DNA of 64,000 nt from an uncultured Candidatus Poseidoniales archaeon (GCA_902530535.1 CACAAP010000003.1:721-64720); one strand, 5' to 3'. Counted from the stretch's first letter, positions 8,906 through 61,852 are shown. Numbers and translations are program-made. The notes: a model not told the origin generated them from the letters alone.

Positions 8906-8942
8906 GGATTCCTTCTATTGGGGGCCGTTGTCCATGCCGAAC

Positions 8943-18883: not shown

Positions 18884-18891
18884 CTTATCAC

Positions 18892-20226: not shown

Positions 20227-20367
20227 ATTCTTTCTGGAACACCATTTTTTTTCAAGTCTATGTCGATGATTCTGGGAAATTGCGCCTTTCCAGGTATGCT
20301 AAGAACTCCGAGAAATCACCGGTATTTGCCCAGTATGCAATACAATTTCAAATATCTTACAATTTTT

Positions 20368-20443
20368 TGGTAGTCCCGCCCGGATTCGAACCAGGGTCCC
20401 CGGGACCAAAACCCGAGATGATGGACCACTACACTACGGGACT
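20368..20443 (-). tRNA. tRNA-Gln (anticodon UUG), genomically encoded CCA
   Basis: Minus-strand sequence AGUCCCGUAGUGUAGUGGUCCAUCAUCUCGGGUUUUGGUCCCGGGGACCCUGGUUCGAAUCCGGGCGGGACUACCA. Acceptor AGUCCCG/CGGGACU, anticodon stem UCGGG/CCCGG, loop UUUUGGU (anticodon UUG), T loop UUCGAAU. Resembles archaeal tRNA-Gln. Confidence 0.85.
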
Positions 20444-34300: not shown

Positions 34301-36721
34301 AACTCCGGAATGGACGCAGGCCCAGGACCATCCACAGCGATACACGTCAACGACTACGTGAACGCCACGAACAACACGCTATCGTGGAACGGATGGAACA
34401 AGGCAGGCCTAGACTCCACTGACAGGTTCACGTTCGACGTGCCTGCTAACCACGGGGTCAACATCGACCTGAGCCACGGCTACGACGTCCCCGACGTCTG
34501 GATGATCCTGGACATCTTCGACTCGTCCTGGAACCAGATAGGAATGTCGGCATATGGGTCCGGAGGCCAGACCTTCAACACCACCACGGTCGCTTCGCCG
34601 GCCGACTCATGGATGGGCATCGGAGTGAGGAACTGGGGCAGCTACGACACCACGGGGACCAACTACACGGTCAACGTGACATTCTACACCCTCGACGCGG
34701 ACGGCGACGGCTGGCTAGACCAGCTGGAGATCGACTGCGGCACGGATCCGAACGACGCCAACAGCACCCCAACCGACACCGACGGTGACGGAGTGTGCGA
34801 CTCGCTAGACGATGACATCGACGGAGACGGAATAGGCAACGACCTCGACGAGATGCCTCTCGACGAGAACGGGTCCTCCGATCTGGACGGAGACGGAATA
34901 TCCGACGAGGTAGACCCAGACATCGATGGCGACGGATGGTCCAACATCGCAGAGCAGATCTGCCTAGGCGCAACGAGCATGGCGCACATGGACGCCAACG
35001 TCACGCCAGGAGACTACGATGGCGACGACCTGTGCGACATCACGGCGGACTCCGACCTGGAGCACAGCTCCGCCAGCACATACCTGGACTCCGACGGTGA
35101 CAACGACGGCACGGACGACGAGACGGACGACTTCGACTTCGACGAGTGCGCCGACACCGACACCGACAGGGACGGGTTGCCCGACTCCATCGACACGGGA
35201 CTGCTGGACGCATCTAACAACACCATCTGCCTGCCAGAGACCCCAACGAACCTCACAGAGGACACGGACGACGACGGCGATGGCTTCGAGGACCTGTACG
35301 AGATCGACTGCGGAAGCAATCCGCTGCTCGCAATGGAGATGCCAACCGACAACGACGGCGACGACGAGTGCGACGCACTGGACGTTGACGACGACAACGA
35401 CGGCGTCAACGACACCGACGACCTGTGGCCGCTGGACTACACAGAGTGGTCCGACAACGACGGCGACGGACAGGGCGACAACAGGGACATGGACGACGAC
35501 AACGACGGATGGTGGGACTCCTGCGACCAGAGCGCATGGATGGCCGCCCAGAACTCGAGCCTGAACACGCCCTCTCACGTGGAGGGAGTCAACTACTTCT
35601 CAGGACAGCCTGCTGGAATAGCCAGCAACTGCCCGGACAACACGGACGCCTTCCCACTGGACGGCGCCGAGTGGATAGACACCGACGGCGACGGAGTCGG
35701 CAACAACGCTGACATAGACGACGACGGACAGATCTCCGGAAGCGCCGAGGCCCCAGGAAACAACGACTGGACCGACGCCGAGGAGGCTGCCTGCGGAACC
35801 GACCCACTGGACCACACGAGCGTCCCAGCGGACAACGACGGCGACTACATCTGCGATGCGGTCGACACGGACGACGACAACGACGGCGTGCCAGACGAGC
35901 TGGACGCGTTCCCGACTGACGAGACCGAGGCCGCTGACGCGGACGGCGACGGACAGGGCGACGCAACGGACGAAGACGACGACGATGACGGATGGACCGA
36001 CGTCGACGAGGCATCCTGCCTGACGGACCCAATGGACACCATGGACGTCCCAGCGGACAACGATGGGGACGGCGAGTGCGACCTGACCGACGGCGACGAC
36101 GACAACGACGGAGTGATCGACCTGGACGACGCGTTCCCGAACAACCCGATGGAGAGGGAAGACACCGACGGAGACGGAATCGGCGACAACACCGACAACG
36201 ACGACGACGGAGACGGATGGCTGGACGCCCAGGAGGTCGCTTGCGCCAACGCAGGCGGCTCGGGCGACAAGGACTCGGCCGCTGAGGAGCCCGTCGACCT
36301 AGACGGCGACGGACTCTGCGACGCAGTCGACCCAGACGACGACAACGACGGCTTCCCGGACCCAGCGTGCGTGAACACAGGCATCGGAACGCCATCCCAA
36401 CTCGCGTACGTCGAGTGCGCCGATGGCGACGAGGACAGATTCCCACGAGACAGCACGGAGTGGTTCGACGCCAACGAGGACGAGCAGGGAGACAACGCAA
36501 ACCCAGTCACCCTGATCGACAACGTGATGTTCGATCCCGCCCCATACGCGGGTATCGCAGTGGCAATCGGTGCCGCTGGATACGGCCTGCTACAGCTGAA
36601 CAGAAACGCTGGACAGGGAACAGAGGACGAGGCCGAGGACTACACTGAGGAGTTCGAGGACTTCGACTTCGAGGAGGACGACGAGCCATCTGACGACGAG
36701 GAAGATGGAGAGGAGGACTGA
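31367..36721 (+). CDS. giant secreted protein (1784 aa), paralogue of the previous gene: PPC-like/P-domain-like beta domains plus TSP3-like repeat array, TM anchor, poly-acidic tail (start probably ATG 31376)
   Basis: Signal peptide MNENATRSVNLTLLMIVSVCLPMLGALDA. PPC-like units (DSTDTSDIYAVWLP...DLDLQLYSD etc.) to about 34690. Junction YTLDADGDGWLDQLEIDCGTDPND... is homologous to the same junction in gene 27410-31135. TSP3 array 34690-36500. C-terminal hydrophobic helix then EDEAEDYTEEFEDFDFEEDDEPSDDEEDGEED. Confidence 0.8.
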   Translation: MTPMNENATRSVNLTLLMIVSVCLPMLGALDAPAELDRAGERSETLANCQGNDACRGVDAGNSADTYINLTDDFSWTGEETITYYGDEYNATGYSSSSANNYDGYIIDLPVGYGFTAEVVWNHTGASFWHNYAFMLALGPGDGCMVNYFACDWGYNYYSLTGNLVMGTDGEKEGGNYGGWYGADPPIDLVGDSAVVMVWCYYCFQSGVSMDYTLNITVWTGDGGQKGDVTSPQYNVLLDMPDEPSSWSYQSDTFDLSSGESADLVVTYCDVWCNPETSIVITKPDSTTDTFYLQDYFTGWLATYSDAGEYTVEKIDTYGDGGMGLTIGVSLGNFSSLLSVDDFVYDDMASGHVDSTDTSDIYAVWLPENYKANITLHWDNSADLDLQLYSDYDAATETLSGMFDYSWFDQPEFIDIGQLGDETMFFAEVIHYSGPSSGYILEYQTEPGAPPPCFFQDDGKAPGDGVFTGNGEDATEGAYAPDDTPTDVTGLVDADGNGVFQGMMCAGYDEADWYQISVAAGDGVWAMLEWPEGIDSNFNDTIEIEGDISFGMYMVTSSGYTSFVSSSYGFHPQTVATNESYSWTNDLGVDSTVYLRLLLNEMNEDYESNYTVTFSTYNATEEPWQMACQDDAGQAPIGGCLDAGDSYNEPVNLTTVNQTFEGWGHDSMDAYDFYKVYLPNNYAFEVCVEFPEQNDIDLGLFYLHPTYGYFYSIGNSYNDNPECVWAQYDDAGQDIYMRVWTDRGSGDYEVTITLATPGLEPGGNQDDCGMAGSVPGGDAADLVYPGAWSGHTFTNESTQADLNPLDENGSLREYWEGGVCTGWISYTWDSYDMYSISVPEGHYVNVEYDFDLEGEGDPSTYHRVYMLMCQNQHMPCQYPANGAFFIEQDYGYGMDVIEQNSGLWPVGTLHNASGCDTAYPNPVCAANGWDASNAVSDTAGWVYIYIWTCCSSAPDHEYEMNITFAPLSELEGGSQNDANSGMDAGPGPSTAIHVNDYVNATNNTLSWNGWNKAGLDSTDRFTFDVPANHGVNIDLSHGYDVPDVWMILDIFDSSWNQIGMSAYGSGGQTFNTTTVASPADSWMGIGVRNWGSYDTTGTNYTVNVTFYTLDADGDGWLDQLEIDCGTDPNDANSTPTDTDGDGVCDSLDDDIDGDGIGNDLDEMPLDENGSSDLDGDGISDEVDPDIDGDGWSNIAEQICLGATSMAHMDANVTPGDYDGDDLCDITADSDLEHSSASTYLDSDGDNDGTDDETDDFDFDECADTDTDRDGLPDSIDTGLLDASNNTICLPETPTNLTEDTDDDGDGFEDLYEIDCGSNPLLAMEMPTDNDGDDECDALDVDDDNDGVNDTDDLWPLDYTEWSDNDGDGQGDNRDMDDDNDGWWDSCDQSAWMAAQNSSLNTPSHVEGVNYFSGQPAGIASNCPDNTDAFPLDGAEWIDTDGDGVGNNADIDDDGQISGSAEAPGNNDWTDAEEAACGTDPLDHTSVPADNDGDYICDAVDTDDDNDGVPDELDAFPTDETEAADADGDGQGDATDEDDDDDGWTDVDEASCLTDPMDTMDVPADNDGDGECDLTDGDDDNDGVIDLDDAFPNNPMEREDTDGDGIGDNTDNDDDGDGWLDAQEVACANAGGSGDKDSAAEEPVDLDGDGLCDAVDPDDDNDGFPDPACVNTGIGTPSQLAYVECADGDEDRFPRDSTEWFDANEDEQGDNANPVTLIDNVMFDPAPYAGIAVAIGAAGYGLLQLNRNAGQGTEDEAEDYTEEFEDFDFEEDDEPSDDEEDGEED

Positions 36722-39700: not shown

Positions 39701-42700
39701 CGGACAGTCAGCAAGCGCGGAGACGGTCGGAGCAACCCCCATATGGACTGACTCTGATGAGGCGACCTGTGGCACAGACCCACTAGATTCCACGGACGAG
39801 CCAACGGACACCGATGGCGATGGACTTTGCGACGACGCCCAGGACGACGACAACGACGGCGACGGCTTCTCCAACGCAGACGAGACGACCAACTGCGGCG
39901 AGGGCAACGACGCCCTGGACAGCACGGACTCCCCAACGGACACCGATGCCGATGGATCGTGCGACGCCCTCGACACCGATGACGACGGCGACGGAGTGGA
40001 TGACGCCAACGACGCCTGCCCTCTAGACGACGGCGAGTCAGTCGACACAGACGGGGACACCGTCTGCGACGGCGACGACACCGACGACGACGGCGACGGC
40101 ACGGCCGATGCAAGCGACGCATTCCCACTGGACTCGACTGAGGACACCGACACTGACAGCGACGGAATAGGCGACAACGCGGACACCGACGACGACAACG
40201 ACACAGTCGCTGACGCCAACGACGCATTCCCACTTGACGCCACCGAGACCACCGACACCGACGGCGACGGAACCGGCGACAACGCCGACACCGACGACGA
40301 CGGCGACGGCGTGGACGACGCAAGCGACGCATGCCCGCTCGATGGAGACGAGTCCGTCGACACCGACGGAGACGGCGTCTGCAACGGCGACGACACCGAC
40401 GACGACGGAGACGGCGTGGACGACGCGGACGAGGCAGATGGATCTGGCCTCGCTACCGCTACGGACTGCACACTAGTCACCGACTGCGACGGGGACGGAG
40501 TGGACGACGCGGACGAGGCAGATGGATCCGCACTGGACCTGGACGGCGATGGGACGGCTGACGGCATCGACTGCGCTGTCGACACCGACTGCGACGACGA
40601 CGGCACTGCCGACGACACCGACGCATTCCCTGTGGACGCTTCAGAGGCACTAGACACCGACGGCGACGGTACCGGCGACAACGCCGACACCGACGACGAC
40701 GGCGACGGCTACTCGGACGCTGACGAGACGACCAACTGCGGCGATGGCACCACCACGACCGCTTACTCGTCCTCCAGCGACCCGCTAAACGCATCCGACA
40801 CGCCCGACGACATGGACGGCGACGGGATCTGCGACTACACGGACACCGACAGGGACGGCGACGGACTGGCCAACGGCTGGGACGCATGCCCCGATGACGG
40901 ATCAGGATACACCGACACCGACGGCGACGGAGCCTGCGACGAGTCCGATACTGACGACGACGACGACGGCACCCTCGACGTGAATGACGCATTCCCGCTC
41001 GACGCTTCAGAGGACACCGACACCGACGGAGACGGCGTGGGGGACAACTCCGACGCTGACGACGACGGCGACGGCACTGACGACCAGGGCGACGAGTGCC
41101 CGCTCGACTCGAGCGGGATCACCGACAACGACGGCGACGGAGCCTGCGACGAGTCAGATACGGACGACGACGACGACACGGTCCTGGATGCCGACGAGGA
41201 TTCCGGCTGCGAGTTCGTGACGGACTGCGACGGAGACGGCGTGGGCGACGAGGTCGATGCGTTCGACACCGACGCCGAGGCGACGACCGACACAGACGGC
41301 GACGGCATGCCAGACTCTATCACCGGAGCAACACTGACCTCTGAGACATACACCCTAGAGGCTTGGGACGCAGCAGGATACACTGTCGTGTACGCCGAGG
41401 AGATCAACGGAGGCACGCTGTGCGTCATCGACTCCTCGCTCTTCGAGGACACATGCACATTCTCGACCTCGGTCGGAGTGAACGTCTACGCGGACAACAC
41501 GCAGTACTCCAGCTACCTGGCTGGAGACGGCGGAGCGATCCTGACGACCTCGGACGGAACCGAGCTAGTAAACGAGTCACTCGTGTACCAGTGGTACTAC
41601 GACAGCTACTTCGGAGTATACGACCTGTACTCGGACTCCGCGGTGACGACCACCGACGGTCTGGAGCTAGACGCGGACGACGACGGAGACGGATACGGGG
41701 ACGCAGCAGAGGACACCGACTGCTCAACAGGCGACTCCACCGACAGCAGCGTCACACCAGACGACAACGACGCTGACGGCATCTGCGACGATCTGGATGA
41801 CGACGACGACAACGACGGCTACAGCGACTCTCACGAGTCGGCCTGCGGCACTGACTCATTGACGGCGGACGACGTCTCAGACTTCGACGGCGACGGCACC
41901 TGCGACAGCGAGGACGCCGACGACGACGGAGACGGAACCGACGACGGCGACGACTGGGCTCCCTTCGACGGAAGCGAGTGGCTCGACACGGACAACGACG
42001 GAACCGGCGACAACGCCGATGACGACGCTGACGGCGACGGCACACCAGACTCCGACGACGTGGACGAGACCGACAGGTGCTCCAGCACGGACACCGATGG
42101 CGACGGGATGACCGACTCGTACGACGACTGCTCGGACATGGGCTTCTACTCCACGCTCGACGCTGATGCCGGTGACAACGCCGGCGAGGGCTTCGACGAC
42201 GGGGACCACGTAGGAATCACCGACGACACCACACTGTTCGGAGGCGCAGCCGCCGGCAACCAGTGGTTCCAGGTGGCTGACACAGACGGCGTGTTCAGGA
42301 TGTACTTCGACCACGCCACAGGCGTGTCCGCGGTATCTGCCTGGATAGCCCTAGCGAGCACCGACTACGAGGACGAGGACTACTACGCGTCCTACTGGGT
42401 CGGCGACGACGGCACCACCACAAAGATCGGCGACTCCCGCGACAGCTGGGGCAACATCGACAACTGCTGGTGCGAGGGATTCTGGGGCCAATGGGTCGTG
42501 GAAGTTCCCTCTGAGGACGGATACCTGATGCTCGAGGCCAGCAACGACGACGACGCCGAGCACTGGGGACTTGACAACGTGGCATACCACGACAACAACT
42601 GGGACGTAATATCGATGGTCACCTTCGAGGACTCGGTAGGGGACATGGGAGTCTACACGACCCCATCCACTCCGGCGCTCCTCGCGGGCACATACACCGT

Positions 42701-45700
42701 CCAGATCGACGACTCGTGGGGCGACGGCGGACACGGCATCACCGTGACCAACGGCGCAGACACGCTATGCACCATAGGCCAGTACGACTACACGTCCACA
42801 GCCAGCTGCACGTTCGACCTGACTGCCTACTCCGACGAGGAGATCTCGGTAGCGGTCGACACTGACAGCTACGCATCCGAGGGCACTCTTACGGTGACCT
42901 TCGACGACGGAAGCACTGCGGTTGAGACATGGTCTGGGGACACCTCGTTCGACTACGCGCACGTGGGCGACGAGCTCCTCGAGCAGGAAGGCGAGTACAC
43001 CATCACGATCTCCGACCCAGGTTGGGGAGACGGCGGTCACGGCGTCGAGGCATACTTCAACGGAGAGAGCGTCTGCTCGATAGGGCAGTACGACTACTCG
43101 AGCTCCGCGTCATGCACCTTCACCGGAACCGGATTCCCGGACTCGGTGCTGGACATCGACATCGATACCGACAGCTACCCATCAGAGGGACAGCTGGACG
43201 TGACGTTCCCAGACGGAACGACCGCTACGGAGACATGGTCCGCTGACACATCGTTCAGCTACGCAAGCCACTCGGGCACGGACGTGCAGCCAGTGGCAGG
43301 CGAGGTCATGCTGAGCAACGGGCACGGCGCCACAGTGAGCCTGGACACCTCGTCCTACCACACTGGGACCGTGGACGACGACGACGACAACGACGGCTTC
43401 GCCGACGATGACGACGCGTTCCCGACCGATGACAGCGAGTGGGACGACATGGACGGCGACGGGGTCGGATCGAACACCGACAACGACGACGACGGCGACG
43501 GCACCAACGATGGCGTAGACGACTTCCCACGCCACGCGCATGCTCAAACCGATACAGATGACGACGGTATGCCCGACGAGATAGGATGGACAAACGGAGA
43601 AATCTTCGAACACTTCGATGCTGGAAACTATACTGGTATGGACGATTACACAGACAATGGATGGGATAGATCAGGAGATTCTCTGTTCGGAATATCATCT
43701 GCTGGCTTCTTAGATGGATATGCCGCTAGAGCAGGGGCAATTTCAGATAATGAGTCCTCTTCCTTAGAGTTAGTAATTGAAACTGCAGGAGGATACCTTT
43801 CATTCGATTACATAATCGATACTGAAGAGCGCTATGACGTACTTTCATTCAGCATAGATGGGATGGAATACTTCAGTGCTAGCGGACAGGAATATCACTG
43901 GGAGTTCATTTGCGATACTGCTGGCTCATACTCAGACACATCTTGGGAAGCAAACTCTCTGAATGACGGTTCGATCCCAGGAGACTGGGTTAACGACGGA
44001 TACGCTGACTGTGGAGATACTGATGGCGATGGAATTTCAGACGATGAAGGCCAGAGTGACTGGTATTCGAAGATTGAAGGGACCTTTGAGACATGGATCG
44101 ATGAAGGAAACCACACTCTAACATGGACATACACTAAGGATGGCTCTGTTTCAGGAGGTAGCGATCGGTCATACATAGATAACATCGTCTTCCCGTACTA
44201 CGTTATTGGCGATGGAGAGTGCTCCGACGGCACAGATGACTGCAACATAGAGGACATGGACGACGACAACGACGGCGTCGACGACTGGGACGACGACTGC
44301 CCGACCGACGCAGGAGAGCAGACCGACACAGATGGTGACGGATGGTGCGACAACGCTGACGCGGACGACGACAACGACGGCACGTACGACTACAACGACG
44401 CCATGCCGCTGGACCCCAACGAGACCAGCGACTTCGATGGCGACGGAATAGGCGACAACGCCGACCCAGACGACGACAACGACGGATGCGACGACGAGGT
44501 GGACGATCTGCCTTACGACGACTCCGACTGCGTCGACACCGACGGCGATGGGGTCGGCGATGATGCCGACCTGGATGACGACGGCGACAACGTCATGGAC
44601 GTCGATGACCCATTCCCGCTAGACGGATCAGCTTGGGCAGACAACGACGGCGACGGGGAAGCAGACGTAACTGGCGACCCACCGTTCCTAGGCAACTTCG
44701 AGGGAGCCTCGATTCCAGCCGGATGGACCACATTCGGCGACGCAGACTGGTTCGTTTGCGGCATGGGAACCTGCGGCACCACCTCAGGCAACGCAATCAA
44801 CGGCTCTTACATGGCCGAGTCAGGAGACATCGCCGACGCGGAAACGAGCTCTATCGAAGTCTCAATCGACACCCTAGCAGGGGACGTCTCGTTCGCTTAC
44901 GAGACCTCCACGGAGACCAACTGGGACTACCTGAGGTTCTACGTGGATGGCAGCCTGACCATGAGCTGGTCGGGCGTGACCTCCGGAACGTACACGACCA
45001 CGGTCAGCGCTGGATACCACACTTTCGAGTGGATGTACTACAAGGACTTCAGCGTCAGCAGCAACGCCGACACAGTCTGGATCGACGACGTGAGCCTGCC
45101 AGTATCGCAGGTCACTAACAACAGCGACCCAGACGACGACAACGACGGCGTGTACGACGAGTTCGACATCGACCCGTTGGATCCATGCGTGAGCCTGGAC
45201 ACCGACGGCGACGGCGAGCCAGACTGGGTTATGACAGGACTGTTCGACATGAGCGGAACGGGCGACGAGCAGTTCATCGTGGACTGCGACGCATCGATGT
45301 GGTCCGAGGACTGGGACGACGACGGCGACGGATGGAGCGATGAGCTGGAAGAACTATGCGGATCGAACCACCTAGACGGAGACGAGATGCCGATGGACAT
45401 GGATCAGGACTTCGTCTGCGACGATCTTGACGACGACTTGGACAACGACGGGGCTGTCAACCCGGTGAACAACTGCGAACTGTACCTGAACTCAGGAGAG
45501 ACGGACGCCTTCATCGACTGCATAAGCGATAGCTTCCACGCAGTCGATGCCGACGGCGATGGAGAGGCATCCTACATGGAACTCATGCACGCATGGACCT
45601 TCCAGTGGGCCTCCTCCGACATTGACGACGGGGACGACATGGTCACCTTCTTCTGCGGCGACGGCTCGGAGATACCCTTCGAGTGGGTCAACGATGAGAT

Positions 45701-47639
45701 GGATGACTGCGAGGACGGAGCCGATGAGCAGCAGTACGACGAGAACGGCGATCCGATCAACTGGTTCGACTGCTATGACGGCACCCAGGTGTGGATCTAC
45801 CAGGTCAACGACGGCTATCCAGACTGCCCAGACGGGGATGACGAGATGCCTGACGACGACTGGGACGACGAGGGCGACGACGACTGGGACGACGAGGACG
45901 ACGACGGCGGCGATGACGAAGGTAGCGAGGACATGGGCGGAATCGGATCACGTGACAACCACGAGAACGGCACCGACGAGAACGGCACCGACGAGAACGG
46001 CACCGACGACGGCGACGACCACGACCACGGCGACGACCACGACCACGGCGACGAGAACGGCACCGACGACGACGGCGATGACGGCGGCGATATGGTCTGC
46101 TACAACATCATGACCCATTCGGTGACCAACGACACCAGCGAGGAAAGCTGCGACGGGTACGCGTACTACGAGAACGCCTCCTTCAACGGGGCGAACTTCA
46201 CTGGATGCTACAACATGGTAACACACGTGGTGACCGGTGACGACGAGGCAACCTGCGATTCATACATGTGGGTCAGCGCATCTGGAGGACCAGGTGACGG
46301 AGGAGATGGTACCGACGACGGGGACGATGACACTGAAGAGCCCGAGGAGCCCGAGGAACCCGAGTCATGGCCAAGCCAAGACGACATGGCTGAATTCGAC
46401 ATGATGTTCTGGGACTGGGTCTCCCAGTGGGACGCGGACGCTAGCGACTCCCTGAGCTTCGACGAATTCTGGCAGATCAACAATGATACTGAGGAAGACT
46501 GGGACTTCGAGAACCCAGGTTGGTCAGAGGACACGACCGATTGGGACCAGTTCCCCTTCGACCCATCAGAGCAGACTGACACCGACATGGACGGAATGGG
46601 CGACAACTCCGACACAGACGACGATAACGACGGCGTCCCGGACGGCCTCGACGCCTTCCCATACGACCCGACCGAGTCTGCCGACCTGGACGGTGACGGA
46701 ATCGGGGACAACTCCGACAACGACACAGACGGTGACGGAATCGACAACGATCAGGACGACTTCGACAGCGATCCAAACGCTGCCGCGGACAACGACCAGG
46801 ACGGCGTCGACGACGCTTCTGACTCGGACGACGACAACGACGGCGTGCCCGACGTTGCAGACTGGGCGCCTTTCGACGCCTCCGAGCAGTACGACACAGA
46901 TGGCGATGGAGTTGGTGACAACGCAGACACGGACGACGACAACGACGGAACCGCTGACGCTGACGACGCCTTCCCGCTGGATGCCAGCGAGAACGCGGAT
47001 GCTGACGGCGACGGGGTTGGGGACAACTCCGACCCAGACGACGACAACGACGGCACACCTGATGGTCTGGACGACTTCCCGAACGATGCCACTGAGCAGA
47101 GGGACTCTGACGGAGACGGAATCGGAGACATAGCCGATCCTGACAGGGACGAGGACGGATACCTGAACTCGGACGACGCGTTCCCGATGAACGCCAACGA
47201 GTGGATGGACACCGACGGCGACAACATCGGCGACAACTCCGATCCAGATATTGACGGAGACAACGTCCTGAATGACGACGACTGGTCACCCTACGATGAA
47301 AACTGCAGAGTTTCCATCGAGAACTGTGAGTGGATGGACACCGACGGCGACGGAACCGGGGACAACGCTGACTCAGACGACGATGACGATACATGGTCGG
47401 ATGCAGACGAGTACTCCTGCGGAACTGACTCGAAGAATGCGAACGCAGTTCCATCGGACTTCGACGGCGACGGAATCTGCGACGCCCTGGACTCCGAGGA
47501 CAACAGGGGAGACGCCGGAGCCGGAGCTGCACCAGACGTGGTCCAGGAGGAACCAGGCTTCACGCCAGGCTTCGCATCCGTGCTAGCAGTCGTGTCCCTA
47601 CTGGGCGCAGCCGCACTAGGACGACGCGAAGAGGACTGA
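36726..47639 (+). CDS. giant secreted mosaic protein (about 3640 aa): more than 40 TSP3-like Ca-binding repeats interspersed with P-domain-like repeats, two MAM-like domains, LDL-receptor-A-like modules and a hyper-acidic region; C-terminal PGF-CTERM sorting signal
   Basis: Signal peptide MEKATQTARTLLMVAVMVAAAIVPMA. Start is 4 nt after the stop of the previous gene, with GGAGG 11 nt upstream. TSP3 motif arrays are throughout. C-terminus reads EEPGFTPGFASVLAVVSLLGAAALGRREED (PGF motif, TM helix, basic residues). Confidence 0.8.
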   Translation: MEKATQTARTLLMVAVMVAAAIVPMAPEAVELRDEARAMGASISTDVTSLTLDEGGSNWYEVSLDEAPDGTLVITPSSDNSVVTVDPSYIKFTKVNWDMPQYIWVDITDTDDDGADTTATISHSISGSDTVFASATIGDVSVTGTDYDIDTDGDGLHDGLDTDDDGDGIGDGNDAFPLDSSEDTDTDGDGTGDNADTDDDGDGTADSDDWAPLDDSEDTDTDGDGTGDNADIDDDGDGVNDSDEDDGCDLLVDCDGDGVNDDTDAFDSDANESADADGDGVGDNADDFDSDATEDTDTDGDGVGDNGDAFPDDSTETTDSDGDGVGDNGDAFPNDASETTDTDGDGVGDNSDWNATDSTESNDNDGDGVGDNADTDDDDDGVLDVDEDSNATLDCSILSDCDGDGVGDATDAFDVDPEAWDDLDGDGLADTFPNLLVNSYETIQLCGPEGGTEFYDATAYSDGPTGDYLAVSSSDDDSNGNNYEDTECTFTVPSGYTADVYLQTASYGSEARVTVDGTTYSGFSTGSDNDVVSLSAGTYTLYYEDSYGDGCNPSSYYGACFVQVSYENLVGQVVPSTSGFGTDLDNDDDGDGFSDADEDTCGTDSMNSTDAPTDTDSDGLCDAGVDDDDDDDGVLDSDEETGCDLLTDCDGDGVGDATDTHDNDATETSDMDGDGIGDNSDDDRDGDGYLNSNDEFPDDDSEWTDNDGDGTGDNADTDDDTCPEADGTDDDGDGTADHTCGTFTGLGSTMGYDFYPGDGVADVDDAFPMTPAESADNDGDGWGDNADADDDNDGISDAQDDDMDGDGFTNDDEDTNCVGDGGDSTSAGTTPDDMDGDGTCDYLDDDTDGDGTDDTSDAFPEDACADTDTDGDGDPDTLVSGCSTTLTEDGNDDYDPSAAPTPTSVCSIGSGSFASDSCTFTVAAGDELTIEMTTTSWASEAGLTLLEPGETAATNLELLTTSGSFSNYGSYSWTYTDAGEYTLTITDSYGDGGQSASAETVGATPIWTDSDEATCGTDPLDSTDEPTDTDGDGLCDDAQDDDNDGDGFSNADETTNCGEGNDALDSTDSPTDTDADGSCDALDTDDDGDGVDDANDACPLDDGESVDTDGDTVCDGDDTDDDGDGTADASDAFPLDSTEDTDTDSDGIGDNADTDDDNDTVADANDAFPLDATETTDTDGDGTGDNADTDDDGDGVDDASDACPLDGDESVDTDGDGVCNGDDTDDDGDGVDDADEADGSGLATATDCTLVTDCDGDGVDDADEADGSALDLDGDGTADGIDCAVDTDCDDDGTADDTDAFPVDASEALDTDGDGTGDNADTDDDGDGYSDADETTNCGDGTTTTAYSSSSDPLNASDTPDDMDGDGICDYTDTDRDGDGLANGWDACPDDGSGYTDTDGDGACDESDTDDDDDGTLDVNDAFPLDASEDTDTDGDGVGDNSDADDDGDGTDDQGDECPLDSSGITDNDGDGACDESDTDDDDDTVLDADEDSGCEFVTDCDGDGVGDEVDAFDTDAEATTDTDGDGMPDSITGATLTSETYTLEAWDAAGYTVVYAEEINGGTLCVIDSSLFEDTCTFSTSVGVNVYADNTQYSSYLAGDGGAILTTSDGTELVNESLVYQWYYDSYFGVYDLYSDSAVTTTDGLELDADDDGDGYGDAAEDTDCSTGDSTDSSVTPDDNDADGICDDLDDDDDNDGYSDSHESACGTDSLTADDVSDFDGDGTCDSEDADDDGDGTDDGDDWAPFDGSEWLDTDNDGTGDNADDDADGDGTPDSDDVDETDRCSSTDTDGDGMTDSYDDCSDMGFYSTLDADAGDNAGEGFDDGDHVGITDDTTLFGGAAAGNQWFQVADTDGVFRMYFDHATGVSAVSAWIALASTDYEDEDYYASYWVGDDGTTTKIGDSRDSWGNIDNCWCEGFWGQWVVEVPSEDGYLMLEASNDDDAEHWGLDNVAYHDNNWDVISMVTFEDSVGDMGVYTTPSTPALLAGTYTVQIDDSWGDGGHGITVTNGADTLCTIGQYDYTSTASCTFDLTAYSDEEISVAVDTDSYASEGTLTVTFDDGSTAVETWSGDTSFDYAHVGDELLEQEGEYTITISDPGWGDGGHGVEAYFNGESVCSIGQYDYSSSASCTFTGTGFPDSVLDIDIDTDSYPSEGQLDVTFPDGTTATETWSADTSFSYASHSGTDVQPVAGEVMLSNGHGATVSLDTSSYHTGTVDDDDDNDGFADDDDAFPTDDSEWDDMDGDGVGSNTDNDDDGDGTNDGVDDFPRHAHAQTDTDDDGMPDEIGWTNGEIFEHFDAGNYTGMDDYTDNGWDRSGDSLFGISSAGFLDGYAARAGAISDNESSSLELVIETAGGYLSFDYIIDTEERYDVLSFSIDGMEYFSASGQEYHWEFICDTAGSYSDTSWEANSLNDGSIPGDWVNDGYADCGDTDGDGISDDEGQSDWYSKIEGTFETWIDEGNHTLTWTYTKDGSVSGGSDRSYIDNIVFPYYVIGDGECSDGTDDCNIEDMDDDNDGVDDWDDDCPTDAGEQTDTDGDGWCDNADADDDNDGTYDYNDAMPLDPNETSDFDGDGIGDNADPDDDNDGCDDEVDDLPYDDSDCVDTDGDGVGDDADLDDDGDNVMDVDDPFPLDGSAWADNDGDGEADVTGDPPFLGNFEGASIPAGWTTFGDADWFVCGMGTCGTTSGNAINGSYMAESGDIADAETSSIEVSIDTLAGDVSFAYETSTETNWDYLRFYVDGSLTMSWSGVTSGTYTTTVSAGYHTFEWMYYKDFSVSSNADTVWIDDVSLPVSQVTNNSDPDDDNDGVYDEFDIDPLDPCVSLDTDGDGEPDWVMTGLFDMSGTGDEQFIVDCDASMWSEDWDDDGDGWSDELEELCGSNHLDGDEMPMDMDQDFVCDDLDDDLDNDGAVNPVNNCELYLNSGETDAFIDCISDSFHAVDADGDGEASYMELMHAWTFQWASSDIDDGDDMVTFFCGDGSEIPFEWVNDEMDDCEDGADEQQYDENGDPINWFDCYDGTQVWIYQVNDGYPDCPDGDDEMPDDDWDDEGDDDWDDEDDDGGDDEGSEDMGGIGSRDNHENGTDENGTDENGTDDGDDHDHGDDHDHGDENGTDDDGDDGGDMVCYNIMTHSVTNDTSEESCDGYAYYENASFNGANFTGCYNMVTHVVTGDDEATCDSYMWVSASGGPGDGGDGTDDGDDDTEEPEEPEEPESWPSQDDMAEFDMMFWDWVSQWDADASDSLSFDEFWQINNDTEEDWDFENPGWSEDTTDWDQFPFDPSEQTDTDMDGMGDNSDTDDDNDGVPDGLDAFPYDPTESADLDGDGIGDNSDNDTDGDGIDNDQDDFDSDPNAAADNDQDGVDDASDSDDDNDGVPDVADWAPFDASEQYDTDGDGVGDNADTDDDNDGTADADDAFPLDASENADADGDGVGDNSDPDDDNDGTPDGLDDFPNDATEQRDSDGDGIGDIADPDRDEDGYLNSDDAFPMNANEWMDTDGDNIGDNSDPDIDGDNVLNDDDWSPYDENCRVSIENCEWMDTDGDGTGDNADSDDDDDTWSDADEYSCGTDSKNANAVPSDFDGDGICDALDSEDNRGDAGAGAAPDVVQEEPGFTPGFASVLAVVSLLGAAALGRREED
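37620..37751 (+). repeat. 66-bp in-frame tandem duplication (2 copies, about 93% identical, with a partial third) inside the TSP3 array
   Basis: gacggcgacggcgtgggcgacaacggggacgctttccccgacgactccaccgagactaccgactcc is repeated with 4-5 substitutions. Confidence 0.8.
45963..46007 (+). repeat. 15-bp microsatellite (gagaacggcaccgac x3 = ENGTD x3), followed by an 18-bp x2 (DHDHGD x2) repeat
   Basis: Perfect direct repeats seen directly in the hyper-acidic region of the 3644-aa gene. Confidence 0.85.
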
Positions 47640-55327: not shown

Positions 55328-55404
55328 TTCCGTTCTAGGACACTTTAGGCCTTTTTCCACATATGGCGCAGGATTATATCCAGTCCGCATATTCATTTGT
55401 TTGA

Positions 55405-56829
55405 ATGCGAGTGATTATCGCAGGTGCCGGCGAGGTCGGCCGGGGTGTTGCCGCAGCGCTTCGAGGCGAGAAGCGAGGAGTTGCGATGATCGATCCCGAC
55501 CCCAATGCAATTAGCGACTCCCAATCTCTAGATTGCTTGCTGATAACGGGCAACGCCCTATCAAGGGACTCTCTAGTAAGAGCTGGAATCAATGATGCTG
55601 AGATCATCGTCTTCGCAACCAATGATGACAATGTCAACATCTTAGGATGCGCTTTCGCCAAGAGGGTGTTCAGCGAACAGGTGGGCGACAGAACTGCTTC
55701 CGGGCTGATCACTATCGCCAATGTACGTGACTCAGAGATAACTCACCCTTCGAGGGGTGCCGGACCGTTGGAGAATTGGGCTCGTACAAACTTTGTTGTT
55801 TCACCTTCGACAGATGTTGTAGAACAACTAATCTCCGGATTAGTATCCCCTACCCTTTCTGATATCATCCCAATGGGTGATAACGCTTGGATTGTCGAGT
55901 CTGCTGTATCAGTTGGCTCTCCTATGGTTGGCTCAACAATCGAAGATGCCAATTCGAGCTCCACAAAAGATCCGGATTATCCCCGAATCATAGCAATGAA
56001 AGCGGGTAGCAGGAAGGGGCGAATAGTTTCAGGAAATGAAATAATCCAACAGGGGGACATGTTGGTCTTTGTTACAGGTTCAACCAAATTCTTCGGTGAG
56101 ATTGCCCGATTGGTCGGGGATGAGAATTCTGAGATGCCGGATAAGCCGACTGTGGCAATTTTCGGAGCAACCAACTTCGGTAGCAAACTAGCGGAGCACT
56201 ACCTCAATATGGGCTCGAACGTAGTAATCATTGAACCCGATCTAGACTCAGCTAACGCAATAGTTGGATCCCGCATTGGTGTCAATAAGAGGTTGGACGT
56301 GATACACGGTGATCCTCAGGACGAGGATCTTCTACGCGAACTCGCAGTGGAAGATCACGATATTGCAATCTCTACTCTCAGTGATGATAATCTGAATATT
56401 TCGATAGCTATGAGGACATTCGACAAAGGCGTTTCCAGAACTGGCTTAATTCTCAAGGATAGGGCCCTAGTAGAGGCAATTCAGCGTATTGGACTAAGGC
56501 CGGTGAGTAAGCGCAGAGTGGCAATAAAGTCGATTCTCAAAGCCATCCACATGCATGTCCCAGGACTATACGAGCCAATTCCCAGAATCCCATCTTTGGT
56601 ATCTATGTCTGCTGAGATAAATGCCGGAAACGGACTACTAGGGAAGGAATTGCCAGAAGTAGAGGACATAATTGGGGCTAACCTAGTTATGCTGGAGAGG
56701 CTAGATAATGATGGAACATTCAACAACATAATCGAGGAAAACATCGGAACCATCCAAGAAGGTGACAGGCTCTACTTGATTCTTGAGATAGATGATGTAG
56801 GCAAGGCCGAGGAGATATTGCGGAGCTAG
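55405..56829 (+). CDS. trkA: Trk potassium uptake system NAD-binding subunit TrkA (two TrkA-N/TrkA-C pairs)
   Basis: MRVIIAGAGEVGRGVA and a second VAIFGATNFGSKLA Rossmann motif. 474 aa. Confidence 0.85.
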   Translation: MRVIIAGAGEVGRGVAAALRGEKRGVAMIDPDPNAISDSQSLDCLLITGNALSRDSLVRAGINDAEIIVFATNDDNVNILGCAFAKRVFSEQVGDRTASGLITIANVRDSEITHPSRGAGPLENWARTNFVVSPSTDVVEQLISGLVSPTLSDIIPMGDNAWIVESAVSVGSPMVGSTIEDANSSSTKDPDYPRIIAMKAGSRKGRIVSGNEIIQQGDMLVFVTGSTKFFGEIARLVGDENSEMPDKPTVAIFGATNFGSKLAEHYLNMGSNVVIIEPDLDSANAIVGSRIGVNKRLDVIHGDPQDEDLLRELAVEDHDIAISTLSDDNLNISIAMRTFDKGVSRTGLILKDRALVEAIQRIGLRPVSKRRVAIKSILKAIHMHVPGLYEPIPRIPSLVSMSAEINAGNGLLGKELPEVEDIIGANLVMLERLDNDGTFNNIIEENIGTIQEGDRLYLILEIDDVGKAEEILRS

Positions 56830-56830
56830 T

Positions 56831-58432
56831 ATGCGTTGGGGAGTAGTTAGCCTAATTCTCGGCTGGACTATCGGGCTCGTCTCAGTACCATTAGTGGTTG
56901 TCGGTCTTTACAGCCTCTATGTCGAGGGATTTGAACAAGCTATTCGCACCTTCGCTCTTCCGGCGACTATTTCACTTTCATTGGGCTATTTGATGATTTT
57001 CCGCTCAGGCGTATCTGAGCCTTCATCCCTGGTTCGAGATAGAGAGGCATTCGCTTCTGTGGCCCTTGGTTGGATCCCTGTGGTCATAGTGGGGGCTCTT
57101 CCTCTTTGGCTAGGGGGAATGTTTCACGGCCCCTTCGGGGATTTCTGGAACCCAGGGGGAGCAAACTCAAACTCTCAGATGATGTATGGGCTACTCCACT
57201 CTTGGTTCGAGTCGATGTCTGGATTCACAACTACGGGGGCTTCCATTGTAGACCCAGCAACTAGCCCTGTTTGCGGTTCTGGAGCCGCCGTGTTAAACGA
57301 TTTCAGTGGTGACTGCCTTGGTAGTCAGAGGAAAAGCCTGATTCTATGGAGGTCAGTTTCTCAATGGATTGGCGGGATGGGGGTCATTATGCTCGGGCTT
57401 CTCATCTTCTCAAGGGCCCTAGGAGGGGGCATGGCATTAGCGAGAGCAGAATTGACAGGGCCATCTGTGTCGAACCTTGGAACTACTCTCGAGAGCACGG
57501 CTAGGAAACTCTGGGGGATATACGTAGGTCTCACAGTACTCCAGGCGATACTCCTCTCACAACTGACTAGTATGGACCCATTCGATGCGGTCAACTATGC
57601 TCTAACAACAATGCCTTCAGGTGGTTTTGGAACAACTGATTCTGGAATAATGCAGTTTGATGACTACATTATTGAGTCGATTGTGATGCTCTTCATGCTT
57701 CTAACTTGTATTAACTTCAGCCTCCTGTATTTCGCATTTTCAGGAAGGTCGAATGAGATTTGGAAGGACGAGGAGCTTCGAACTTATCTGCTAATTGTCT
57801 TCATCGCATGGATTGCCATGGCAGTCAATATATCTCGCTCTAGCGATTTAGATTATGGAATATTGGAATCCATCAGATACTCCATATTTCAGGCAATCTC
57901 AATCACCAGTACTGGTTACTCTAGTGCAGATTTCTCCCAGTGGCCAGTATTCAGTCAATTTGTTCTGCTACTGCTGATGATAATCGGGGCCAGTGCTGGA
58001 TCTACTGGTGGCGGACTCAAGGTGCTTAGGATCCGCATTGCCTTCGAACTGGCGAAGAGGGAGGTCATGAAGATAATTCAGCCAAGGAAGGTTGTTGCGA
58101 TTAGGTTCAATAGATCCGTTGTTGATGAGCAGCGGGTTTGGATAATTCTTGGAATGGTAAGCTCATGGATGGTCTTGGTCACAGCGTCAATGCTCACTAT
58201 TTCCTTCCTAGAGCCAGATTTGACTATGACAGATGTACTCTCTGTTTCCATCTCCCTTCTCGGTAATACTGGTCCCGCATTGGGAGAATTCGGACCTTCC
58301 GGTGCTGCTGCTGCATGGGCTGGGATGAGTATTCCTTCGTTACTGGCTTCTACGATATTGATGTGGCTAGGTCGTCTCGAACTTCTGACTGTACTCGTTC
58401 TTCTCCATCCAAGGACTTGGGATTCAGACTAA
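56831..58432 (+). CDS. trkH: Trk/Ktr potassium transporter membrane subunit TrkH
   Basis: 533 aa. Repeated M1-P-M2 units with selectivity-filter-like GFTTTGASI, TMPSGGFGT, ITSTGYSS, GNTGPALG. Start is 2 nt after the trkA stop. Confidence 0.85.
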   Translation: MRWGVVSLILGWTIGLVSVPLVVVGLYSLYVEGFEQAIRTFALPATISLSLGYLMIFRSGVSEPSSLVRDREAFASVALGWIPVVIVGALPLWLGGMFHGPFGDFWNPGGANSNSQMMYGLLHSWFESMSGFTTTGASIVDPATSPVCGSGAAVLNDFSGDCLGSQRKSLILWRSVSQWIGGMGVIMLGLLIFSRALGGGMALARAELTGPSVSNLGTTLESTARKLWGIYVGLTVLQAILLSQLTSMDPFDAVNYALTTMPSGGFGTTDSGIMQFDDYIIESIVMLFMLLTCINFSLLYFAFSGRSNEIWKDEELRTYLLIVFIAWIAMAVNISRSSDLDYGILESIRYSIFQAISITSTGYSSADFSQWPVFSQFVLLLLMIIGASAGSTGGGLKVLRIRIAFELAKREVMKIIQPRKVVAIRFNRSVVDEQRVWIILGMVSSWMVLVTASMLTISFLEPDLTMTDVLSVSISLLGNTGPALGEFGPSGAAAAWAGMSIPSLLASTILMWLGRLELLTVLVLLHPRTWDSD

Positions 58433-59928
58433 CCAAAACTATCTAGCGTGGATTGGCTCTCATCATTGCTTTCCTCCACTATGTCCTTTGATACGTCCTC
58501 CTCTATCTCGAACTTCTCTTCAAGCTGTCCGAACTCCTCCAGTATTGTCTTCCCAACTTTGCTGGTCTTCGGAATACCTAGAACTGCAAGATGATCTTCC
58601 CCCGTCATCCCTATCTTCTTCGCTACAGTAAAGTCGCTCTCAGATGCTCCGAGGCTCTTATCGTGAATCGCCAGAAGAGCAGGCCATAGATCTTCTCTGA
58701 ATGATGATTTGCTAGTTCCTAGGGATCCCGCTAGTCTCTCAATCAAGTCGATATTCCTCCAAGTTTCACCCCCCCTTCTCAGGAATTCTGGAAAACTAAT
58801 GAAGACGCCCCCATCGTTCTTTGAATTAGAGACCGCTGCAATGGCCTGAGTTGGCAATGATGAGCCCCAATACCAAGATCTGAAAGCACGATTGGTGAAT
58901 TTTGTAGCCAGATAGGAATCCGAGTTGCACATAGCTCCAGAGATCGCCTCAAGACCCCTGCTGCTAATCACCGATTGATTGTTCCACGAGAACCATGCTA
59001 GAATCTCGTCTGGGTCCTTGTCTGAGTTTAGGATGGCCTCTGATGCTAGAAGGCCCGAATCAGAATTGTAGGCTCTTTTCAGGGATTCGAACACGTTAAT
59101 CTGTGAGTCCCTGAGTACCGATCCAGATAGCTCACTCACTGAGGCCATGTCTACGTGCCCATTTGCAGTAACCGATAGAGATTGTAAATCCTTCACGAGA
59201 GCCCTGAGGTCTCCGGGATTCCTTCGAATTAGAGCATCTAGAGCCTCCGGATCAATTCCTACACTTTCCGAATCAAGAACTCTTAGGGCTATCCTCCTAA
59301 GATCTGTAGGCCCGACTCTCTCGAATATGATGTTTTCAGATACTCTGTTTACCCTATCCCTATTCCTTCTCCAATTCCCTCTCCCCCAGAGCTTCATCGG
59401 ATCATTACAGGTCATAATTACTGGATTTTCAGTTTTGTTGAGTAGATTGAGTAACTCCGCCTTCCCCCCCGAGTCCCCCTTCAGTACTGGTCCTTCTTCT
59501 GACCCCATGGTGGTGTGGATTCTTTCTTCTGATACCTGTGAGAAGCCTCCGCTAAGGTGATCTACCTCATCTAGGAGTATCACAGTTTTTCCAGTAGTTT
59601 CAGATCCCCTGGAGAAGTTCTCTAGTGAGACGTATTGCGAGCCCCTAGTTGCAGAGGATCTTATGGCGGCCGCATTCCTTTGCTCGGAGGCATTCAATTC
59701 TACAATCGACCAACCCTTCTCTTTTGCTATTGCATGTGCCAGCGTAGTTTTCCCCACTCCCGGGGGGCCAGAGAGCAGCAGCCCCCTCTTTTTCGGAGCC
59801 TTCCCAGAATCCCATCCTTCTAGCCAAATCCTCACTCTTCTTATCTTATCCCCATTACCCTCCATATCCGACAAAGTGGAAGGGCGGTATCTCTCCGCCC
59901 AGTCACCATCCTCCTTGCCCTGCTCCAT
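58429..59928 (-). CDS. rfcL: replication factor C large subunit
   Basis: LLLSGPPGVGKTTLAHAIAKE Walker A, ILLDEVD (DEVD box), RFC box VII/VIII. 499 aa with an archaeal RFC-L specific C-terminal domain. Confidence 0.8.
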   Translation of the reverse strand: MEQGKEDGDWAERYRPSTLSDMEGNGDKIRRVRIWLEGWDSGKAPKKRGLLLSGPPGVGKTTLAHAIAKEKGWSIVELNASEQRNAAAIRSSATRGSQYVSLENFSRGSETTGKTVILLDEVDHLSGGFSQVSEERIHTTMGSEEGPVLKGDSGGKAELLNLLNKTENPVIMTCNDPMKLWGRGNWRRNRDRVNRVSENIIFERVGPTDLRRIALRVLDSESVGIDPEALDALIRRNPGDLRALVKDLQSLSVTANGHVDMASVSELSGSVLRDSQINVFESLKRAYNSDSGLLASEAILNSDKDPDEILAWFSWNNQSVISSRGLEAISGAMCNSDSYLATKFTNRAFRSWYWGSSLPTQAIAAVSNSKNDGGVFISFPEFLRRGGETWRNIDLIERLAGSLGTSKSSFREDLWPALLAIHDKSLGASESDFTVAKKIGMTGEDHLAVLGIPKTSKVGKTILEEFGQLEEKFEIEEDVSKDIVEESNDESQSTLDSFG

Positions 59929-59964
59929 GAGAGAAAATTCGCGCGGCGACTCTTGAAGATTAGC

Positions 59965-61683: not shown

Positions 61684-61852
61684 ACACTTACCACAACCAA
61701 CGTGGTTTTCAAGCCATCCTCGTATACAGCGCCCTTGTTGTTATTGTGGGACCATAGGAGATTCCCCAGCATTTGCGTACGAAAAACGCTGAAATTAGAG
61801 AAGCATTCATTTATCCAATCGATAGCCTGAGTCGCAAGGTGGCTATGAAAAA

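Follow-up and report, generated by a model that had tools for sequence, protein, structure and literature searches.

A gene for a giant surface protein of 3644 amino acids (aa) lies in a stretch of 64,000 nucleotides (nt) from an uncultured Candidatus Poseidoniales archaeon (GCA_902530535.1, CACAAP010000003.1:721-64720), which is referred to as the window. The gene derives from a member of the Poseidoniales (Marine Group II, MGII), and the related loci come nearly all from Poseidoniales. Within this gene, a block of 214 codons stands out by its low GC content at third codon positions (GC3) and encodes a single domain, the island-type domain, which is located upstream of a paralogous domain termed copy 2 (Table 1). 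Here, we describe the composition, the relatives and the history of this block, which is probably a resident hypervariable allelic cassette that is exchanged by homologous recombination at conserved borders. The protein starts with a hydrophobic signal-like segment, which is followed by many acidic TSP3-like repeats (Pfam TSP_3, E = 2.5e-5) with interspersed globular domains. It ends with the archaeal surface-anchoring signal PGF-CTERM (PF18204 at aa 3620-3641, 19.8 bits at a cut-off of 18.8), and the C-terminal sequence ...PGFTPGFASVLAVVSLLGAAALGRREED comprises the PGF motif, a transmembrane helix and a basic tail. Aspartate accounts for 25% of the residues, and the open reading frame (ORF) has a mean GC content of 61.6% and a GC3 of 0.77. 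An exact look-up of the 3644-aa protein returned no record. According to the section on thrombospondin genes in the study by Rinke and co-workers, thrombospondin-type proteins are widespread in the Poseidoniales as putative adhesins (Rinke et al. 2019, PMC6461757).

Table 1. Features of the giant surface protein gene and of its low-GC3 block (window coordinates).
Feature	Coordinates	Strand	Basis
Giant surface protein gene, 3644 aa	36705..47639	+	ORF list, translation, Pfam, synteny
Block A, second mosaic block; second of two tandem WGDGGH-type units	42960..43270	+	Identity, site patterns
Conserved acidic linker upstream; likely 5' homology arm, breakpoint about 43539-43545	43275..43538	+	Identity, synonymous divergence
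Low-GC3 block, 214 codons, GC 0.455, GC3 0.40	43539..44180	+	Change-point likelihood, GC profiles, codon tables
Island-type jelly-roll domain, paralog of copy 2	43584..44201	+	Alignment A3, tblastn, identity tables
58-aa insert inside the jelly-roll (QEYHWEFIC...SIPGDWVNDGYADCGDTDGDGISDDEGQSD)	43887..44060	+	Alignment A3, island alleles
Conserved Cys-containing and acidic linker downstream; likely 3' homology arm	44202..44675	+	Identity tables
Copy-2 jelly-roll domain	44676..45113	+	AlphaFold, Foldseek, orthologs
LDL-receptor class A (LDLa)-like modules of the same protein	45630..45900	+	Pfam PF00057
PGF-CTERM archaeal surface-anchoring signal	47553..47621	+	Pfam PF18204

The initial annotation had reported a sharp drop in GC content inside the gene, and sliding-window GC, codon-usage and change-point analyses agree that this drop is real. 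The GC content of the region 43551-44210 is 0.455, compared with 0.634 upstream and 0.618 downstream. In steps of 200 nt, it amounts to 0.425-0.49 over 43600-44199 and to 0.60-0.68 on both sides, with a return to 0.60-0.64 by position 44300. The maximum-likelihood borders (43539-44180) differ by 12 and 30 nt from those given at first, and an unconstrained change-point scan placed the segment at 43542-44180 (likelihood statistic 2dLL = 129.7). The drop sits at third codon positions, where GC3 falls from 0.75-0.92 to 0.28-0.48, and the GC contents of the first and second positions stay within the range of the flanks, the former near the bottom of that range. Since the shift is one of third positions, amino-acid composition is ruled out as the cause of the low GC content. 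For instance, aspartate is encoded by GAT in 20 of 33 cases inside the block and in 97 of 889 cases elsewhere in the gene (Fisher p = 3.6e-11), and synonymous switches from GGC to GGA for glycine, from ACC to ACA or ACT for threonine and from GAG to GAA for glutamate are likewise seen. In a stretch of 220 codons, the GC3 of the block is 0.42 vs 0.80 in the rest of the gene, and the lowest value for any such stretch in 2000 within-gene codon shuffles was 0.636. The first 60 codons aside, the block is the sole part of the ORF with a GC3 below 0.55.

The contrast looks different when the block is compared with the genome rather than with the gene. The mean GC content of the window is 54%, its ordinary genes have GC3 values of 0.45-0.64, and three consecutive giant acidic genes with values of 0.70-0.79 are the high outliers. 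Thus, the surrounding gene and not the block is the compositional outlier: the block does deviate from the gene, as was first described, but the gene itself deviates from its background. The GC3 of the block is slightly below the lower limit of the ordinary range. Its codons are best predicted by the low-GC3 genes of the window itself (-1.55 bits per codon), the poorest prediction comes from the remainder of the giant gene (-2.28), and native quirks such as the fractions of TTC (0.89) and GAT (0.61) are reproduced. The composition is therefore atypical for the gene only (GC3 0.40 vs 0.80) and not, as would be expected of a foreign segment, for the host.

The block corresponds to one discrete domain that is homologous to copy 2 (tblastn E = 7.8e-7 and 3.9e-6, 30-37% identity). 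In alignment A3, the island-type domain aligns over its full length with copy 2 and with copy-2 orthologs from 18 loci, the 58-aa insert excepted. The N-terminal half of the island-type domain (about 43600-43810) is its most variable portion. That a second copy with a normal high GC content follows 500 bp downstream, as had been noted earlier, is borne out by this homology and by a GC3 of 0.72-0.90 in copy 2. Copy 2 is widespread in the Poseidoniales, with orthologs that are 45-50% identical in many MGII loci. The AlphaFold model of copy 2 (pLDDT 87.2) is a beta-jelly-roll, for which Foldseek retrieved the MAM domains of meprin (TM score 0.68-0.72) and neuropilin-1 (0.60), the gingipain K2 adhesin (0.70, E = 9e-6) and the carbohydrate-binding modules CBM61 (0.61) as well as CBM35, CBM6 and CBM22 (E about 1e-4). 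The model can thus be superposed on solved MAM structures and also shares the jelly-roll fold of the CBM6/35/61 and gingipain K2/K3 cleaved-adhesin domains (TM 0.60-0.72, E down to 9e-6). The model of the island-type domain itself is weak (pLDDT 51.7), and pro-meprin chains appear only at ranks 16 and 46 (E = 0.015-0.04); its fold is therefore taken from the homology to copy 2.

In contrast to the MAM, gingipain and CBM families, neither the island-type domain nor copy 2 matched a Pfam family at E <= 0.01, the MAM profile PF00629 included, and the insert of the island-type domain is unseen in these families. At E <= 10, only hints below the cut-offs were obtained (TSP3_bac, WDGH and CBM_35_2, the latter at E = 0.011), and a sequence search of the PDB with the domain matched only the TSP3 flanks. 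A HMMER scan of 1.84 billion representatives yielded 3163 proteins with this type of domain, and many of the top matches are very long and multiply matched. Hence, the label 'MAM-like / concanavalin-like' of the initial annotation is fair at the level of the fold but not at that of the sequence profile. By analogy to the modelled fold of its paralog, the domain may bind a ligand, either a glycan or a protein.

The insert contains two conserved cysteines and an acidic LDLa-like motif (IPGDWVNDGYADCGD...DDE), and it is the most conserved part of the block. It is missing from all copy-2-type domains in alignment A3 and has been kept in all island alleles as well as in the more distant relatives P0032 and L086 introduced below. 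The profile PF00057 did not match the insert (43869-44066) even at E <= 10, and two cysteines stand against the six-cysteine pattern of the family. The resemblance to LDLa modules is thus one of motif only (IPxxWVNDGxxDCxD...DE). Further downstream, the same protein contains LDLa-like modules that are recognised by PF00057 (E = 2.3e-6, 28.2 bits at a cut-off of 24.1) and whose span may also be given as 45666-45845; judged by their sequence, these modules seem to be native relatives of the insert motif. A PRKCSH-like hint was seen alongside them.

Orthologs of the gene were recovered from several independent sources. They comprise the metagenome-assembled genome (MAG) L005, the single-cell genomes L006 (AH-287-M04) and L007 (AG-422-I22), the megabase-scale ENA contigs L085 and L087 (1.45-1.55 Mb), the contig L086 with a GC content of 39% (1.57 Mb), the small contigs L001-L004, the GOS fragment P0002 and the more distant 1030-aa fragment P0032. 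The names of L085, L086 and L087 end in '_pilon', from which we infer polished long-read assemblies. The island-type domain with its insert is located at one and the same site, between matching acidic linkers and upstream of copy 2, in every ortholog recovered (L005, L006, L007, L085, L087, L001-L003, P0002, P0032 and L086). It is lacking at the equivalent site only in the MGIIb orthologs L015, L016 and L025, in which the WGDGGH-type domain and copy 2 are separated by about 220 aa of linkers. Given this distribution in the sequences compared, the domain is an old, clade-restricted gain and not a recent arrival, and it is plausibly a diverged duplicate of copy 2.

Some of these loci deserve a comment of their own. 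L086 shares synteny and the island-type domain (5400-9500), with an extra LDLa-like element (AYWINDGYDDCNDASDE) in the N-terminal part; its gene is interrupted by many frameshifts, probably long-read errors, and has a GC3 of 0.12-0.27 throughout, the D-rich repeats included. In the small scaffold L004 (1-614), an island-type domain with about 71% aa identity to that of the window is frameshifted near 117-125 and precedes a non-homologous Tyr/Asp-rich tail of 30-34% GC, a stop codon and a terminator-like hairpin. The scaffold is either chimeric or represents a truncated variant in a different context. Poseidoniales-type giant genes are also found on MAG contigs labelled as Gammaproteobacteria, Moraxellaceae or Ilumatobacteraceae (L010, L018, L019, also L028, L030 and others). 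L010 and the archaeal MAG L009 have almost identical copy-2 domains, and at least L010 is probably a mis-binned contig; the others may merely have TSP3 repeats in common. The ENA protein predictions P0001, P0003, P0004 and P0006 (loci L001-L003) terminate in LSLIHI or CLLYTS(P/D).. peptides, which we take to resemble a translated Nextera adapter, so that the contig ends would carry untrimmed adapter.

According to the neighbouring genes, the relationships of the closest lineages are ((window, L006), L005), L007. The window and L006 are 93-98% identical at the aa level in flanking housekeeping genes, with a synonymous divergence (dS) of 0.31-0.36 in four neighbouring genes, and 87-93% identical in the part of the giant gene that follows the block. 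In the block itself, the identity is 67% at the aa and 69% at the nt level, dS reaches 1.6-2.1 and the non-synonymous divergence (dN) 0.15-0.29. The block dS is thus 5-6 times that of weakly codon-biased neighbouring genes, and relaxed codon selection in place is therefore insufficient as an explanation, because it would raise dS only to the neutral rate. The same excess is seen in other pairs. In the block, the identity is 58-70% between genomes whose flanking DNA is 88-94% identical. The window, L085 and L006 show pairwise nt identities of 0.65-0.70 in the block and of 0.85-0.93 in the linkers and downstream. Between L085 and the window, the nt identity amounts to 94% for OPT-SurE, to 93% for the upstream linker and to 66-67% for the block. 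L087 matches the window at 92-96% aa identity in the linker, dn1, copy 2 and dn2 and at about 55-58% (nt and aa) in the 5' part of the block. Copy 2 of the window is 93-99% identical to those of L006, L085 and L087.

The genealogy of the block also differs from that of its flanks. Site patterns that group the window with L006 prevail over the two alternative groupings in the flanks (53:22:24 and 47:10:11) and not in the block (11:18:16). Likewise, the species tree was recovered by the four-point method in 500/500 and 498/500 bootstrap replicates for the flanks and in 11/500 for the block, a discordance to which long-branch artefacts may contribute. The 5' edge of the divergent segment is sharp. 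The 264-nt upstream linker of the window is 93% identical to that of L001 (dN 0.015, dS 0.356) and also 93% identical to that of L085, and from position 43539 onwards, the identity to L001 falls to 62% and dS is saturated. In the nt alignment, the window-specific third-position changes from G/C to A/T begin at about 43540, in codons that are still conserved. The 3' edge of divergence (about 44180-44240) is more gradual, and identities of 0.85-0.94 are regained from 44241. Among nine sequences, at least seven classes of alleles can be distinguished, with identities of 0.52-0.74 between the classes in the 5' part. One allele is common to L085 and L001 (0.91), which come from different samples and assemblers, and another one to L002 and L003 (0.90-0.92), also from different samples. 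Conversely, different alleles are found on near-identical backgrounds: the linkers of the window, L085/L001, L087 and L006 are 0.85-0.93 identical, whereas their blocks are 0.58-0.70 identical.

A second mosaic block, block A, lies 270 nt upstream of the island and shows no change in GC3. Here, the aa identity of the window to L005, L006 and L007 is 46-60%, compared with 83-100% among these three, and 91 site changes, spread evenly over codon positions, are confined to the window, compared with 1-7 in the others. L087 is the closest relative (78% aa). The second WGDGGH unit of the window is 58% identical to the first one, compared with 30-40% in the orthologs, which suggests either intragenic gene conversion or a distinct allele of the unit.

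The dip in GC3 recurs in the other alleles, with different depths. In L005, the unconstrained scan placed it at 43578-44216 in window coordinates (GC3 0.54 vs 0.82). It is broader in L006 (0.61 vs 0.79), weak in L007 (0.68, not the top segment) and evident in L085 (0.59) and L087 (0.57), where the flanks have values of 0.75-0.90. The overall GC content of the block is 0.51-0.56 across the alleles and 0.63-0.68 in the linkers, with the window allele as the extreme at 0.45. When changes in the block are polarised with L005, the window lineage has undergone 50 changes from GC to AT and 16 from AT to GC, compared with 22 and 27 in L006. The conserved insert is also low in GC3. Protein divergence shows no correlation with GC3 outside the block (rho -0.07 for the window and -0.05 for L006), where other highly divergent parts of the gene retain a GC3 of 0.8-0.97. 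The low GC3 is thus a property of the block and not of local variability. A codon bias that tracks protein constraint (Akashi-type accuracy selection) is an insufficient explanation, because there is no correlation between divergence and GC3 outside the block and because the conserved insert is low as well. Distance from the TSP3 repeats, among which gene conversion might raise GC3, can also be dismissed, as the repeat-free 1.2 kb at 42200-43400 have a GC3 of about 0.8. In relatives of low GC content, the orthologous gene has a uniformly low GC3 (0.12-0.27 in L086, 0.38-0.39 in MGIIb).

Taken together, we consider it reasonably probable, with room for doubt, that the block is a resident hypervariable allelic cassette whose alleles are replaced by homologous recombination at conserved borders. 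The block would encode a resident, clade-specific jelly-roll of the ligand-binding type with an LDLa-like acidic insert, and many deeply diverged alleles of this domain, older than the species splits, would be maintained by diversifying or balancing selection. Lineages would exchange these alleles by homologous recombination, the crossovers falling into the flanking conserved acidic linkers, and the window would carry one allele that is otherwise unsampled. If recombination among the alleles is precluded by their divergence, the block would be shielded from the force that holds the gene at a GC3 of about 0.8. This force may be GC-biased conversion or else codon selection, which would be inefficient under subdivision into allele classes. 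The block would then drift toward the unbiased codon usage of ordinary genes, and the window allele would have moved furthest in this direction. A second candidate cause of the dip is the repeated import of alleles from lower-GC Poseidoniales that possess the module, such as L086. This possibility is countered by the finding that the window allele is nearest to alleles of sister lineages (75-77% aa), while L086 shows 33-45%.

Several observations weigh against the exchange of resident alleles or against the cause proposed for its compositional trace. Recombination is read from discordance and breakpoints and was not seen directly, and long-branch attraction could partly account for the four-point outcome obtained for the block. 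The exact allele of the window was not found a second time, the best matches being 75-77% identical at the aa level. The dN/dS ratio of the block is about 0.12 and not elevated, which gives no direct sign of positive selection, and the function of the domain is deduced from the fold similarity of its paralog. Moreover, block A is equally variable among close relatives and still has a GC3 of 0.72-0.83. Hypervariability alone is thus not predictive of a low GC3, which makes the proposed cause weak, although the variation in block A may have arisen through conversion by the adjacent paralogous unit. Finally, the island of L086 has a GC3 of about 0.25 compared with 0.19-0.21 in its flanks, a marginal gap in a frameshift-ridden assembly. 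A more specific version of the cassette reading, which should be regarded as tentative, is that the block serves as a dedicated specificity cassette, open to exchange, in the major adhesin or surface protein of this Poseidoniales genus. Ancient alleles would persist as a trans-species polymorphism under negative frequency-dependent selection, for example by virus recognition or by specificity for particles or algal glycans. Recombination would be suppressed inside the block and free at the linkers, and the loss of GC3 would be the footprint of this arrangement, either via weaker codon selection or via exclusion from GC-biased conversion.

It is unlikely, in our view, that the domain was acquired long ago from a low-GC source, has ameliorated incompletely and has evolved rapidly in situ by relaxed constraint or local hypermutation, without later exchange. 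This scenario would fit the absence of the domain from the MGIIb orthologs, in which the neighbouring domains are otherwise adjacent, and the depressed GC3 in all alleles, with the most distant ortholog L007 as the most 'ameliorated' one (0.68). The numbers of lineage-specific changes in the block are also about equal (87 in the window and 76 in L006). However, it is at odds with the block dS, with the loss of the signal shared by the window and L006, and with the direction of change in the window lineage, which has moved off the host composition and thus in the reverse direction of amelioration. Furthermore, one allele is common to L001 and L085, whereas different ones are found in the window, L006 and L087, which are equally close. 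As to local hypermutation, neither a reverse transcriptase nor a template repeat was found, and the substitution spectrum, in which C>T, G>A and C>A prevail, is not adenine-specific. A diversity-generating retroelement was dismissed on the same grounds, as the ORFs of at least 300 aa include no reverse transcriptase and the 64 kb contain no second copy of the block.

It is quite unlikely that the locus is an assembly artefact, in which the contig is a consensus of co-occurring strains and the block allele of another strain has been threaded into the flanks of the window through a strain 'bubble'. In favour of such a chimera, the allele was recovered from no other assembly, even though a 99%-identical copy-2 fragment (P0007) was recovered, the breakpoints fall into linkers that are conserved and repeat-like, so that a graph assembler could change paths there, and a second anomalous block is located 270 nt upstream. 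However, the architecture and the GC dip recur at matching borders in L005, in the two single-cell genomes L006 and L007, in the two megabase-scale contigs L085 and L087 and in small contigs of other samples. A metagenomic chimera, which had been put forward as the alternative to a foreign insertion, is therefore a poor explanation of the phenomenon, although the window allele by itself might conceivably be one. In addition, a graph or overlap chimera would have to be joined in an exactly shared stretch, so that in some real cell the low-GC3 allele should border on a practically identical high-GC3 linker; the compositional step would then still be real.

Selection for the codons themselves is very unlikely to explain the block. 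AT-rich or rare codons could slow down translation for the co-translational folding or export of a Ca-binding, disulfide-bonded domain, or they could form an internal regulatory signal. The position of the dip is indeed kept across divergent alleles, and the dip spans the whole domain including the conserved insert. However, its depth varies from a GC3 of 0.40 to 0.68, and it is nearly absent in L007. The copy-2 paralog of the same fold has a high GC3, short ORFs in other frames are unremarkable, and the excess of dS and dN as well as the phylogenetic discordance would be left unexplained.

The recent in-frame insertion of a foreign domain cassette from an unrelated low-GC lineage, as originally proposed, is hardly credible. 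In its favour are the sharpness of the compositional step, the lack of the domain in some other Poseidoniales genera and the existence of low-GC Poseidoniales (GC3 0.2-0.4 in the orthologous gene), of which L086 has the island-type domain. However, all close and moderately distant orthologs have the domain at the matching site, its codon usage agrees with that of the genes of the window, the insert motif has native paralogs in the protein, and the nearest alleles belong to sister lineages and not to L086. No mobility genes were detected among the ORFs of the window, no repeats of the block in the 64 kb, and no direct repeats or target duplications. An intein or a mobile element was likewise rejected, as there are no splice motifs and no mobility genes. 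No donor emerged from a word-based protein search, from the HMMER scan or from scans of genome, metagenome and viral collections, which held nothing closer than the alleles with 75-77% aa identity, and no viral relative of the block was found in the viral scans. The original proposal holds in so far as the history of the block differs from that of its flanks, which points to recombination, but its domain shuffling is not supported; one allele of the resident domain has probably been replaced by another one.

Surface proteins with mosaic domains that are shuffled by recombination are well known in bacteria, for instance the porins and transferrin-binding proteins of Neisseria, the pneumococcal PspA and the tips of intimin/FimH-type adhesins. 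The archaeal block appears similar to these proteins in that an exposed domain diverges far beyond its flanks, with a discordant phylogeny, sharp breakpoints and shared allele classes. In contrast to the bacterial examples, it belongs to a 3644-aa TSP3-repeat PGF-CTERM protein of an uncultivated archaeon, and GC3 is depressed over the whole block in all alleles of a strongly GC3-biased gene. Neither silent donor cassettes nor a dedicated switching machinery were seen in the window and the fetched loci; the absence of a second copy of the block from the window and from the loci fetched from the same genomes is weak evidence with regard to silent cassettes. Co-occurring close relatives that differ mainly in cell-surface proteins have also been described as surface 'metagenomic islands', such as the cell-wall-associated genomic island of Haloquadratum walsbyi (PMC4535781) and the metagenomic islands of Salinibacter ruber (PMC2800850), which are usually explained by phage- or niche-driven diversification. 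Unlike these islands, which comprise many genes and differ in gene content, the present case concerns a single 214-codon domain in a conserved syntenic gene. The thrombospondin proteins treated by Rinke and co-workers match ours in the group of organisms, the type of repeat and the proposed role in adhesion; the section concerned covers the presence or absence of the genes and their role and does not touch on allelic hypervariability inside genes or on compositional mosaicism (PMC6461757). Thus, mosaic surface domains and metagenomic islands are known, and the present locus is a worthwhile new example with respect to the host, the scale of a single domain and the conserved block-wide loss of GC3 bias.

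The Marine Group II archaea are among the most abundant archaea of the surface ocean and uncultured, and their attachment to particles and algae and their defence against viruses are little understood. The locus points to the 214-codon domain as the place where genomes with an identity of otherwise 88-98% differ most, which makes it a candidate for a specificity-determining or virus-exposed part of the cell surface. The locus also shows that a sharp intragenic GC step on its own is no evidence of foreign DNA or of a chimera. If the link between hypervariability and codon bias held more widely, dips in GC3 could serve as a cheap detector of balanced hypervariable modules in uncultivated microbes that requires the sequence only.

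Apart from blocks, the gene contains an acidic low-complexity stretch at 45861-46316 (DDWDDEGDDDWDDEDDD... and NGTDE repeats) that is very variable in length, with gaps of 80-90 nt relative to L085 and missing segments in L005. In L007, the orthologous stretch is the strongest GC3 anomaly of the gene (0.59 vs 0.76). Downstream of the giant gene, the genes for OPT, EamA, SurE and SRP54 follow in the window and in the same order in L005, L006, L007, L085 and L087; in L086, the downstream synteny comprises only OPT, EamA and SRP54. The giant gene is itself the last of four large secreted-type genes in a row (20530-47639), namely those for a 1988-aa subtilase with a PPC domain and for the acidic proteins of 1241, 1784 and 3644 aa. 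The genes for the 1784-aa and 3644-aa proteins overlap by 17 nt (36705-36721), and GC3 climbs stepwise over the series (0.59, 0.70, 0.79 and 0.77). The genome is compositionally heterogeneous at the 10-kb scale. The left-hand housekeeping genes of the window have GC3 values of 0.56-0.64, clearly above those of its right-hand end (55400-63600, with genes for TrkA/TrkH, an AAA ATPase and a class II aminoacyl-tRNA synthetase), where the GC content is 0.44-0.50 and GC3 0.48-0.50. For comparison, Poseidoniales genomes range from 34.5 to 62.7% GC in the part of the study by Rinke and co-workers that reports genome GC (PMC6461757). The lowest-GC stretch of the 64 kb is located at 18600-20400 (GC 0.41, GC3 0.45, Asp 3.6%). 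It includes a minus-strand ORF of 444 aa (18892-20226) that has no Pfam match, and this stretch could be a genuine compositional island at the level of a gene.

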